Virus record (IMG/VR): IMGVR_UViG_3300032265_002475
Location: 5 to 64,004 of that record
From: a virus
DNA length: 64,000 nt
Reading direction: 5' to 3' (one strand)
The notes below the pieces were generated by a model. That model searched no databases and was not told where the DNA came from. It was given only the letters and a program-made list of their open reading frames with translations. The position numbers and the translations under genes are program-made. This document shows, piece after piece, positions 19,614 to 56,602 of the stretch. The number at the start of each line of letters is the position of its first letter. The stretch's first letter is position 1.

Positions 19614-19648
19614 TTATAAAGGTAAAAAAGAATTTTTAAGAAGCCAAA
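19614..19648 (-). promoter_or_regulatory. weak copy of the recurrent promoter element upstream of primase
   Basis: ataaaggtaaaaaagaatttttaagaagccaaa. Confidence 0.3.
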
Positions 19649-20076
19649 TCTTTTCTAAAATATCTTGCTTGTATATTTTCGTTAAGTGCTTTAGGGTTAC
19701 GTAACACTTCTAATTTAAATTGATATTCTGCTTCTAAAAAATTTAATTGTTTTGAATTAAAAGCAAATTCTAATATCTCACGTTTAAAAACATCTTCACC
19801 TTGTTCTTTAACCATTTTATGAATAATTTCAGATGAAGACCAATATGTTAACCAATTACTTTCTTCATAACTTACTTCTTTAGTTTTTTTACGACCTCTG
19901 CCTTCTTGTAATGCTTGAACTTTTTTACCAAGTTTTTTAGTTTTTTTAGTCTGTAGGTTTTTACGTCCAATATAAAATTGGCCTGTTTTTAAATGTGTAA
20001 TTTTATAAATAAAACCAAAACAATTTTTAGGGAAATCTTCTAAATTTTTTATAACTGTATTTTTATATAACCACAT
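19636..20076 (-). CDS. GIY-YIG homing-endonuclease-like protein
   Basis: GFIYKITHLKTGQFYIGRK. Confidence 0.65.
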   Translation of the reverse strand: MWLYKNTVIKNLEDFPKNCFGFIYKITHLKTGQFYIGRKNLQTKKTKKLGKKVQALQEGRGRKKTKEVSYEESNWLTYWSSSEIIHKMVKEQGEDVFKREILEFAFNSKQLNFLEAEYQFKLEVLRNPKALNENIQARYFRKDLAS

Positions 20077-48164: not shown

Positions 48165-48404
48165 TTATAATGTTTCTATTGCTAATTCTCCAAGTACAGA
48201 CATTAATTCAATGTGTGCATCATCACTTAATAGTTTAGTTCCATTAAATAGGTCTTGATATGTCACAGTTACTCCATGTATTTTATTTGCTTCTATAACT
48301 AAATCAAACCATTGTTCTGTACCCATTTCAACTTCACCGTCATGAACTAATTCAGGATAATGTTTTACAATTACGTTTTTGATTTTTTGTTGTGTGTTTG
48401 CCAT
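48165..48404 (-). CDS. small protein homologous to the C-terminal domain of 43161-44510
   Basis: KHYPELVHDGEVEMGTEQWFDL vs EEYPEIIEDGEIETGTEEWLFL. Confidence 0.5.
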   Translation of the reverse strand: MANTQQKIKNVIVKHYPELVHDGEVEMGTEQWFDLVIEANKIHGVTVTYQDLFNGTKLLSDDAHIELMSVLGELAIETL

Positions 48405-48419
48405 TGTTATTTTATTTAT

Positions 48420-48460
48420 TTAATGACATAAAGATAAGGTGGAAAAAATGAATAGCCAAA
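48420..48460 (-). promoter_or_regulatory. early promoter element (identical subfamily ggtggaaaaaatgaatagccaaa)
   Basis: motif. Confidence 0.55.
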
Positions 48461-48793
48461 TTAATTTTCATTATTTAATTCAAATTGTACACGTTCATTA
48501 AATAATGATTGCACATCTTCAAACGGTTGTGTCATCATTAATTGACGTAACATTTGTTCCTCCATATTCATTTCTTTAAGTAAATGTTGTGTTTTTTCAC
48601 CTGTTATTTCAGGATTAGATGATCTACACCATTCAGCATATAATAATTCAGCTTTATCATGTGGGGTTATGCCTTTTAATTCTAAATAATCATCATATTT
48701 TAGATTATGATTAATTACATTTCCTAATTCTACCAATATTAATTTTTTAACATTAGGTTCATTTAATAATTTTTTTAATGTTATATTTTTCAT
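48461..48793 (-). CDS. hypothetical protein
   Basis: ORF. Confidence 0.5.
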   Translation of the reverse strand: MKNITLKKLLNEPNVKKLILVELGNVINHNLKYDDYLELKGITPHDKAELLYAEWCRSSNPEITGEKTQHLLKEMNMEEQMLRQLMMTQPFEDVQSLFNERVQFELNNEN

Positions 48794-49126: not shown

Positions 49127-49147
49127 AACTTTTATTATTTTTATTAT

Positions 49148-49188
49148 TTAATGACATAAAGATAAGGTGGAAAAAATGAATAGCCAAA
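49148..49188 (-). promoter_or_regulatory. early promoter element
   Basis: motif. Confidence 0.55.
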
Positions 49189-49226
49189 TTTATTTTAAAT
49201 TCCAAATTTTTCATTTTGTTACTTAT

Positions 49227-50048: not shown

Positions 50049-50064
50049 AACTTTTATTATTTTA

Positions 50065-50102
50065 TTAACATAAAGATAAGGTGGAAAAAATGAATAGCCA
50101 AA
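50065..50102 (-). promoter_or_regulatory. early promoter element
   Basis: motif. Confidence 0.55.
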
Positions 50103-50231
50103 TTTTATCTAAATTCCAAATTCGATTACTAAATATAAAACACACGCTACAAAAGCTAGTGCTACTATTACTAATCCTGTGTCAATTGGTGCCCAATATT
50201 GTTTCATTGTATTTTATGTTAATTAAAATAG

Positions 50232-50294: not shown

Positions 50295-50492
50295 GACCGT
50301 ATAAAAAACTACATCTGCCTTCTAAATGGGATACCTTGTCTCAAAAGTGTTATCCAGTACATTAACCCAAACCACTCAAATTTTAGAACTTTGAGAACAA
50401 TAGCCCCACCTCATCACAAAGGGTACTGAATAATGTTATTACTATTATTTGTTCAGTGTTAATCAGATGTAGTTTTAAAGAACGTTTTTGTG

Positions 50493-50582
50493 AAGTTGGT
50501 GGGAGATTTGAACTCCCATCTCTCATCATACAATGAGGCGTTACTCAATTGTGGTATTCATTCCCACTTACGCCAACCAACT
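50493..50582 (-). tRNA. tRNA-like gene, ~89 nt, non-canonical core; anticodon not resolvable by eye
   Basis: rc AGTTGGT-TG-...-GGGAG-TTCAAAT-CTCCC-ACCAACT-T: perfect 7-bp acceptor and canonical T-arm; D region has A14 A15 G18 G19; candidate anticodon stem CTCAT/ATGAG encloses only 6 nt. Confidence 0.4.
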
Positions 50583-56500: not shown

Positions 56501-56602
56501 TAGTCAGGACAGGATTCGAACCTGTAATGATGCGTGTCTGTCCGTACATCAACGTTAGGGTTGCGACCCCTTCTCGCGTCTTGCCAATTCCGCCACCTGA
56601 CT
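56501..56602 (-). tRNA. tRNA-like gene, 101 nt, class-II-like (Leu-type D arm); anticodon uncertain (candidate loop GUCGCAA)
   Basis: rc AGTCAGG-TG-GCGGAATTGGCAAGACGCG...ACAGG-TTCGAAT-CCTGT-CCTGACT-A: perfect acceptor, canonical T-arm, D-arm nearly identical to E. coli tRNA-Leu; too long for a standard tRNA. Confidence 0.5.

Follow-up and report, generated by a model that had tools for sequence, protein, structure and literature searches.

What is the role of a gene that carries the acceptor stem and T arm of a transfer RNA (tRNA), together with a six-nucleotide loop at the position of the anticodon? The question is raised by a locus in a 64,000-nucleotide (nt) stretch of viral DNA (positions 5 to 64,004 of the IMG/VR record IMGVR_UViG_3300032265_002475), the whole of which we call the window. 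This is a phage-like genome of ~26% G+C content (GC), with all genes on one strand. A tRNA-like gene had been proposed at positions 50493-50582 from the letters alone (the original prediction). We confirm this position; the gene is read on the minus strand, i.e. the same strand as all the flanking open reading frames (ORFs). The element almost certainly belongs to a family of structured phage RNAs, judged by alignment, in which a tRNA-like body carries an additional hairpin within its D loop. We think it moderately probable that, as a whole, it is best explained as a phage gene for a non-decoding tRNA mimic, whose tRNA chassis would display a binding module.

A search of IMG/VR with the flanking proteins at first gave no relatives; the protein search reached only near-identical contigs (L001-L003; loci are given L numbers) and one divergent locus (L004). 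In the L004 homologue the acceptor stem differs by three compensatory changes, and a 23-nt stretch (GCGUAAGUGGGAAUGAAUACCAC) is identical to that of the window. The stem at its anticodon position is a different one, with a loop of 21 nt as its cap where the window has 6 nt. In IMG/VR 32 contigs carry an exact copy of the 23-mer GCGTAAGTGGGAATGAATACCAC, and further relatives were obtained using three degenerate patterns (one with the hairpin loop left unspecified) and one metagenome scan. The family comprises at least 190 viral and metagenomic loci, with at least 131 distinct sequences and 69 different acceptor strands, and the GC of the loci ranges from 26 to 65%.

A model of five helices was tested on an alignment (A1) of 46 short members. 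The parts of the window element are as follows, 5′ to 3′ after the gene itself.

50582-50493, minus strand: the whole tRNA-like RNA gene, 90 nt with the discriminator U at 50493.
50576-50582, minus strand: 5′ strand of the acceptor stem, AGUUGGU, pairing with 50494-50500; compensatory changes in 7 of 7 pairs, 100% paired in the 46 sequences.
50574-50575, minus strand: connector U8 G9; columns invariant or nearly so in A1.
50570-50573, minus strand: 5′ strand of the D stem, GCGU, pairing with ACGC at 50538-50541.
50568-50569, minus strand: tertiary nucleotides A14 and A15; AA in all 131 distinct members.
50551-50567, minus strand: hairpin inserted in the D loop, GUGG-GAAUGAAUA-CCAC; the signature of the family and presumed functional module.
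50542-50550, minus strand: linker AAUU followed by G-A-G-U-A, read as equivalents of G18, G19, U20 and A21.
50538-50541, minus strand: 3′ strand of the D stem, ACGC, identified by covariation and RNAalifold.
50522-50537, minus strand: stem-loop at the position of the anticodon arm, CUCAU-UGUAUG-AUGAG; compensatory changes in 5 of 5 pairs, the helix being kept and the cap not.
50518-50521, minus strand: variable loop AGAU, 4 nt; the final AU invariant in A1.
50501-50517, minus strand: T arm, GGGAG-UUCAAAU-CUCCC; compensatory changes in 4 of 5 pairs.
50494-50500, minus strand: 3′ strand of the acceptor stem, ACCAACU, followed by the discriminator U (50493) and then CAC.

Over the five helices 98.7% of alignment cells are paired, with compensatory changes in 21 of the 25 base pairs. 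The covariation score is 0.785, compared with 0.233 on shuffling (none of 500 shuffles reaching the observed value) and 0.07-0.16 when the partners are slid, and RNAalifold independently predicts the same five helices. G-U pairs are frequent (e.g. 16 and 15 at two D-stem pairs), and this fits an RNA read from the minus strand. A covariance model built from A1 (R1) gives members 59-102 bits, compared with 24-41 bits for the ordinary tRNAs of the same loci, and finds one member per locus. The window element scores 94 bits (E=5e-21), partly by construction since it is in the seed, and its minimum free energy fold has -28.3 kcal/mol (z = -2.6). The element is real and far beyond chance. It has everything that defines the family, i.e. 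five covarying helices including a D-loop hairpin located between A15 and the equivalents of G18 and G19.

Much of the body of the RNA is that of a tRNA. The 7 bp acceptor stem (50582-50576 with 50500-50494) and the T arm are present as had been described, and an eighth A-U pair is possible with the bases that flank the acceptor. The acceptor sequence is free across the family. The T loop is of the type GUUCGAAUC, with G53, T54, C56, A58 and C61 invariant. U8, the partner of A14, is invariant, the connector being UG in 71 of 80 sequences and UA in the other nine. A15 is able to form a Levitt pair with U48 at 50518; the variable loop is AGAU in 82 and GGAU in 35 of the 131 distinct members, its U available to A15. 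All the nucleotides that build the L shape are kept, i.e. U8-A14, A15-U48, GG for the T loop, T54-A58 and G53-C61. CCA is not encoded, and the trailer that follows the discriminator is usually C-N-A (first 80 members). The discriminator itself varies (A 64, U 26, G 21 and C 20 in 131 members).

The departure from tRNA begins within the D arm, and here the earlier interpretation requires revision. It had been held that the D stem could not be paired canonically. In fact GCGU (50573-50570) pairs canonically with ACGC (50541-50538) and the stem covaries in the relatives: three of the four pairs have changed on both sides, most clearly at the pair 11:47 (CG in 34 and UA in 12 sequences), and 95.7% are paired. 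Of the four tertiary nucleotides that had been recognized A14 and A15 are in place. The bases assigned as G18 and G19 are instead paired within the inserted hairpin; functional equivalents of G18/G19 are likely to lie within GAG at 50546-50544. The hairpin CUCAU-UGUAUG-AUGAG with its 6-nt loop is exactly as proposed; it had been taken as the only candidate, and a second hairpin located inside the D loop (50567-50551) was overlooked.

This D-loop hairpin is 17 nt long with the consensus NNGG-GAAU(G/A)AAUA-CCNN, and lies between A15 and the G18/G19 equivalents. Its outer pairs covary (GC 31, UA 10 and CG 5 at one pair; UA 28 and CG 17 at the other) and are paired in 130 of the 131 distinct members. 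The loop is GAAUGAAUA in 106 of these, GAAUAAAUA in 24 and AAAUGAAUA in one, and every true member recovered with the pattern in which the loop was unspecified carries one of the same three. The hairpin is followed by a variable linker of 3-7 nt and then by a conserved G(A)G-N-U-A with invariant G and A; a few members (the L005 and L033 groups) have insertions of 50-75 nt after the hairpin. The D-loop hairpin is the only nearly invariant feature of these RNAs beyond the tRNA core. Mimicry of a stop codon or other codon by UGA/UAA within the hairpin loop is a speculation, its basis being a single G/A polymorphism at the apex.

At the position of the anticodon arm the converse is found: a stem of 5-6 bp is maintained across the family, and its cap is not. 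The stem is closed by loops of 3-6 nt, by a GCAA (GNRA) tetraloop in L017, or by a branch of 19-22 nt, and no canonical 7-nt anticodon loop was found among the parsed arms of the relatives. Since the stem is kept by compensation while the cap varies freely, the RNA very probably cannot decode, and would thus be a non-decoding tRNA mimic. The original prediction had offered two readings of the 6-nt loop, i.e. a frameshift suppressor or a non-decoding tRNA-like RNA, and it is the latter that stands. A frameshift-suppressor tRNA is not supported, since among the relatives the loop is conserved neither in length (6 or 8 nt) nor in sequence.

The branch found in around a quarter of the members has a conserved module of its own, [NNNAU-AGY-AUNNN]-UUAA. 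It consists of a 5-bp hairpin with an AGY triloop and a covarying stem, followed by UUAA and 2-4 nt, and is carried by L004, L007, L011, L014, L020, L030, L034, L074, L082, L088, L094, L095, L108, L117 and L123. The UUAA and its flanks sometimes resemble the CUUAAAA anticodon loop of tRNA-Leu(UAA), but without a closing stem.

How does the element appear when examined as a canonical tRNA? It has an acceptor stem of 7 bp and a T stem of 5 bp with a 7-nt GTΨC-type loop, and both helices covary. The D stem encloses 28 nt including the 17-nt hairpin, compared with 7-11 nt in a canonical tRNA, and instead of a 7-nt anticodon loop with U33 and a purine at 37 there is the 6-nt UGUAUG. The window copy escapes detection at default or curated thresholds. 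In default mode ARAGORN finds no tRNA or transfer-messenger RNA (tmRNA) across the 64-kilobase (kb) window, and with its intron, tmRNA and mitochondrial modes nothing at the element. None of the 4227 Rfam families matches this copy at gathering scores, so that neither program resolves the standard cloverleaf that might have been missed by eye. Even at E≤10 there is no Rfam tRNA match on the element, and the sole match is of its 17-nt T arm as a fragment of tmRNA. Across Rfam 15 no family touches these sequences apart from weak or partial matches to tRNA and the tmRNA T arm.

Lowering the thresholds of ARAGORN yields a 91-nt tRNA-Ile(AAU) with weak D and anticodon stems, in which the hairpin CUCAU-UGUAUG-AUGAG becomes a long variable arm. 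We rejected this fold; its D and anticodon stems lack compensatory changes and are 74% and 67% paired respectively across the family. The Rfam tRNA model aligns some relatives above the gathering score (L009 at 41 bits), in the same register as our model, i.e. with 26 nt inserted in the D loop and the anticodon loop shortened. ARAGORN in default mode mislabels 56 of 121 IMG/VR family members as tRNA-Lys(CUU), tRNA-Glu(CUC), tRNA-Gln, tRNA-Leu, tRNA-Pyl or 'tRNA-???', the linker after the D-loop hairpin being read as the anticodon. Censuses of phage tRNAs, and arguments from codon usage, are thus contaminated by mis-typed members of the family (which have also been typed as tRNA-Cys).

The family is virus-encoded rather than cellular. 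The motif is present in at least 130 IMG/VR contigs, and neither the 21-mer motif nor the 3′ half GGGAGTTCAAATCTCCCACCAACT has an exact-pattern match in 185,579 bacterial and archaeal species genomes. An origin as a host tRNA or its attachment site was rejected on the same zero count. Comparison of the window sequence with 50,697 deposited phage records revealed nothing beyond matches to the T arm. To judge by their names, the contigs matched in metagenomes are largely of freshwater and marine origin, and the family is common in aquatic and other viromes. It is apparently undescribed, having no entry in Rfam 15 or description in the searchable literature; searching for the motif itself, or for tRNA-like RNAs of phages, turned up no account of it. 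It could be present, unrecognized, in the set of 10,006 unnamed viral RNA candidates, some of them tRNA-like, reported by Fremin et al. 2023 (PMC10690425). One of the near-identical contigs (L003, ENA scaffold_30902, 97% identical) ends exactly at the 3′ end of the gene (window 50493), which may reflect strain variation with its break point here, or a break in the assembly at the RNA cluster.

Several known RNAs make instructive comparisons. One is the canonical elongator tRNA itself (RF00005), with which the family shares the 7/5 arrangement of acceptor and T stems, U8, A14, A15-U48, the GG...UA core of the D loop, the 4-nt variable loop and the type of T loop. It differs from it in having the 17-nt hairpin and linker in the D loop, and in lacking the 7-nt anticodon loop and a conserved identity set. 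The D arm is possibly like that of tRNA-Gln; the D arm UGGUGUAA-N-GGUAACAC of the true tRNA-Gln of Flavobacterium phage vB_FspM_immuto matches the family chassis.

That phage provides a relative in a cultured virus:

NC_055915.1 20246-20331: 86-nt relative (L176) in Flavobacterium phage vB_FspM_immuto_2-6A, annotated as 'tRNA-Cys'.

ARAGORN in default mode makes no call on it. It scores 53.8 bits with R1, above all ordinary tRNAs and below the core range of the family. It is built like the family members, and its chassis is almost identical to that of L069 (acceptor AAUCGGU, D stem GUGU, CAGAGGGUAACA and the T arm), but in place of NNGG-GAAURAAUA-CCNN it has the hairpin UCAGCA-UAA-UGCUGG. From these sequence features we conclude that it is a divergent D-loop-hairpin tRNA mimic and not tRNA-Cys. 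A D-loop hairpin is thus still present in this lineage, and there is a hint that the U-R-A apex of the loop is also kept. It heads a cluster with tRNA-Ser, tRNA-Glu and tRNA-Gln, and the phage also carries the 7-deazaguanine DNA-modification genes QueC/D/E/F, FolE and DpdA. The baseplate wedge protein of the window is 46.6% identical to its counterpart in immuto.

Mimics of tRNA are known, and include tmRNA, Y RNAs and viral tRNA-like structures. The tRNA-like domain of tmRNA has an acceptor and T arm, a non-standard D region and no anticodon, as here; the family differs in lacking G3:U70, the mRNA-like frame and the pseudoknots, and in its length (90 nt compared with ~360 nt). A tmRNA was rejected on the negative tmRNA search with ARAGORN and on the 17-nt T-arm fragment that is the only match in Rfam. 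The phage small RNAs C4 of P1 and P7, and the stable RNAs C and D of the T4 tRNA cluster, are RNase P-processed and non-decoding. They resemble the family as phage-encoded small RNAs that use tRNA-like features or clusters for maturation, but there is no similarity in sequence or in Rfam; the target of the C4 loops is a known phage mRNA, and none was found for the present loop. The bacterial Y RNA YrlA, in some cases encoded by phages, has a tRNA-like domain and serves as a substrate for tRNA enzymes (Chen et al. 2014, PMC4201824). Both it and the family mimic the D arm, T arm and core, with 15:48 covariation including A15:U48, and neither has an anticodon. However, YrlA ends in a Ro-binding stem at the position of the anticodon stem and its 'acceptor' is closed by a loop (PMC4201824), whereas the family ends in a covarying 7-bp acceptor stem. 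There is no match to Y RNA in Rfam. TROVE (Ro60) is not among the most widely shared clusters of neighbouring genes, in which no search aimed at TROVE was made. Allo-tRNAs (Mukai et al., PMC5389517), whose branches are 8/4 or 9/3, and frameshift suppressors with 8-nt loops are likewise non-canonical cloverleaves, some from phages or metagenomes. They keep an anticodon loop and decode, while the family keeps the 7/5 branch, has no anticodon loop and has a D-loop hairpin. This family looks different from the known mimics in being conserved and restricted to phages, in having given up decoding and in having gained an invariant hairpin at the elbow.

What might such an RNA do? The tRNA body would lead the host enzymes (RNase P and RNase Z/CCA) to mature and stabilize the RNA as they would a tRNA, and would present the hairpin so that it projects from the region of the elbow. 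The hairpin would be the working part of the molecule, most likely the place where a conserved tRNA-handling protein or RNA binds. The RNA could then function during infection as a decoy or adaptor for a tRNA-interacting factor, e.g. a host defence that targets tRNA or a tRNA-processing enzyme, neither delivering an amino acid to the ribosome nor reading a codon. Phages are known to carry real tRNAs that help to evade tRNA-cleaving defences. We put forward the decoy or adaptor mechanism tentatively, as one that may well prove incorrect. It is a possibility, about which we are equally doubtful, that the family represents an undescribed kind of RNA effector, a stable decoy or adaptor in the shape of a tRNA, in which the elbow hairpin would capture a conserved tRNA-handling factor, e.g. 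a defence nuclease or toxin directed at tRNA, or a tRNA maturation enzyme. If this were true, phages of many hosts (with loci of 26-65% GC) would be using the same module to protect or reprogram the pool of tRNA. The family offers a testable handle on RNA-based manipulation of the host, with a small RNA, a candidate active loop of 9 nt and a relative in a cultured Flavobacterium phage.

A number of observations weigh against this interpretation. The mechanism is an inference, and there is no conserved partner protein within ~7 kb, the neighbours being generic genes of replication and recombination. The hairpin of the immuto relative is different and fully Watson-Crick, so that the exact loop sequence is dispensable in that lineage; this makes a single universal sequence-specific partner less likely. 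Lastly, the search patterns fix parts of the motif, and the conservation of sequence in the D stem and hairpin is therefore in part by construction.

Could the RNA instead be a working decoder, with an anticodon loop of 6 or 8 nt serving in frameshift suppression, quadruplet reading or codon recoding? For the copy in the window it is possible to draw an 8-nt loop (UUGUAUGA) that contains U-GUA, the acceptor stem and T arm are perfect, and ARAGORN does call a tRNA at lowered thresholds. However, the fold called by ARAGORN has no support from covariation, and in the 131 relatives neither the length nor the sequence of the loop is conserved, the caps being of 3-6 nt, GCAA or the branch of ~20 nt. 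There is no pattern of U33 or purine 37, and the large D-loop insertion is located at the elbow, which in tRNA is contacted by the ribosome. We regard decoding as most improbable. Decay to a tRNA pseudogene with a chance insertion would be in keeping with the failure of the standard detectors on the element, but is scarcely conceivable where compensatory change affects 21 of 25 pairs, and where the tertiary nucleotides and the hairpin loop are conserved through 131 sequences at 26-65% GC. A role at the level of DNA (i.e. an attachment site, a replication origin or the target of a homing endonuclease) might be suggested by the 23-nt stretch, identical in DNA between very different phages, by the many members in replication modules, and by the presence of a GIY-YIG endonuclease gene in the window. 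Yet the strand-specific G-U pairs and the compensatory changes in five helices indicate selection on the fold of an RNA, and the motif was not found in bacterial genomes, arguing against an attachment-site copy of a host tRNA; this too has only a very slight chance of being correct. Charging by a synthetase that ignores the anticodon could make the RNA an aminoacyl carrier that feeds a transferase outside translation, as charged tRNA is used by the Fem-type transferases of the cell wall. The tRNA core, acceptor stem and T arm are intact, many members lie in neighbourhoods of DNA replication and modification that include DNA methyltransferases, and a precedent for the use of charged tRNA by a phage is Mom of phage Mu, whose modification of DNA draws on Gly-tRNAGly (PMC13219725). 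Set against this, there is no conserved identity set for an anticodon-independent synthetase. The features required for alanyl- (AlaRS), seryl- (SerRS) and leucyl-tRNA synthetase (LeuRS), i.e. G3:U70, a long variable arm, and A73 with a tRNA-Leu core, are not conserved: the 3:70 pair is CG in 29, UA in 12, UG in 3 and AU in 2 sequences of the family, U:A in the window and never the G:U needed by AlaRS, and the variable loop, at 4 nt, is far from the long arm required by SerRS. Only 49% of members have A as discriminator, the sequence of the acceptor is unconstrained, and no GNAT or Fem-like gene is a consistent neighbour. We consider such a carrier very unlikely.

The main rival is a cis-acting signal for processing or stability ('tRNA punctuation') that only recruits RNase P and RNase Z to cleave a polycistronic phage transcript, or, in a variant, a tRNA shape that gives the neighbouring mRNAs defined and stable ends. 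The element lies between genes and is read in the same direction as its neighbours, in several loci (judged by eye) the following ORF seems to begin ~17-28 nt downstream, some members lie in tRNA arrays, and an anticodon would be unnecessary for this role. But processing requires only the acceptor stem, T arm and elbow, leaving unexplained the nearly invariant 9-nt loop of the hairpin as well as the maintenance of the stem at the anticodon position and of the D-stem core, and the downstream genes are not of one family. We judge punctuation to be fairly unlikely. In the remaining proposal the RNA would be matured by RNase P and act in trans as an antisense regulator, its hairpin loop pairing with mRNA, and for this the C4 antisense RNAs of phages P1 and P7 are a precedent. 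The loop is suitable, with 9 exposed and invariant nucleotides, and UAUUCAUUU, its complement if one G-U pair is admitted, has five sites in the window at 45.8-50.1 kb on the gene strand, of which a repeated intergenic element holds at least three. Nevertheless, the total for the window is at the level of chance (11 matches, with 9.2 expected), and in 79 non-redundant loci the sense strand holds the complement 26 times compared with a median of 31 for 8-mers of matched composition, i.e. without enrichment. The matches in the window appear on reading to be in promoter-like spacers and not near start codons, an invariant loop at 26-65% GC would require one universal target, and the C4 family of Rfam gives no match. 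Antisense action on phage mRNAs is unlikely, and for the proposal as a whole we see little prospect.

Returning to the genomic setting, members share the strand of their neighbours, and some are found in or beside phage tRNA arrays. A tRNA is found at 29 of 121 loci in the flanks examined (up to ~14 kb per locus), and in 15 of the 29 it is within 500 nt on the same strand. Neighbouring genes were clustered in 32 and then 118 loci, and all window ORFs were compared by tblastn. The neighbours include SNF2 and DnaB helicases, primase, C5 methyltransferase, VRR-NUC, SSB-like proteins, PD-(D/E)XK nuclease and a 3′-5′ exonuclease, and the clustering revealed no RNA-specific partner protein that is consistently nearby. 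In the window a gene for a SegE-like GIY-YIG homing endonuclease (19636-20076, minus strand) is located in a replication module by the primase and PD-(D/E)XK nuclease genes, and there are GIY-YIG homologues near the tRNA mimic in L095, L117 and L163.

The original prediction held that the tRNA-like genes of the window all deviate from the norm, and this is correct. A '101-nt gene' (56501-56602, minus strand) scores 36.2 bits on the Rfam tRNA model. It has a D arm like that of tRNA-Leu (GCGGAAUUGGCAAGACGC), an odd putative anticodon loop (GUCGCAA) and an extra arm of ~28 nt. Its acceptor stem and T arm (AGUCAGG...ACAGGUUCGAAUCCUGU-CCUGACU-A) recur as a shared chassis, with different middles, in odd tRNA-like genes of other phages, i.e. 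in L055 (three times), L075 and L018 (twice), and also in some D-loop-hairpin members. This pattern of sequence suggests that modular tRNA-like RNAs may be built on one scaffold.

What had been described as a 63-nt armless element is better read as a tRNA-like element of ~89 nt at 50320-50232 on the minus strand, with the acceptor AGGCAGA/UUUGCCU and a T arm GUGAG-UUCAAUU-CUCAC. It scores 23.3 bits with R1 and, over a core of 63 nt, 28.4 bits with the Rfam tRNA model. The 5′ strand of its acceptor shares bases with the 3′ arm of a long-range stem of 13 bp (50476-50464 paired to 50317-50305, with a run of U after it), and the two folds are therefore mutually exclusive.

Between this element and the D-loop-hairpin gene lies a 38-nt core (CUCAAAGUUCUAAAAUUUGAGUGGUUUGGGUUAAUGUA; 50358-50395, minus strand) that is nearly identical in L004 (1838-1875), where the spacer around it has diverged. 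An exact 20-mer taken from the core was not found elsewhere in IMG/VR. The core holds a hairpin CUCAAA-GUUCUAAAA-UUUGAG, and it may be a further small RNA.

The same region of the window contains an intergenic element of 50-70 nt that is repeated on the minus strand (50052-50122, 49139-49208, 48404-48468 and around a dozen more between 44 and 57 kb). The copies are 78-94% identical and lie upstream of many small ORFs, with boxes resembling TTTG...TAtcTTTa and no Shine-Dalgarno sequence. The element resembles a phage promoter with its leader, of Bacteroidota type and present in repeated copies.

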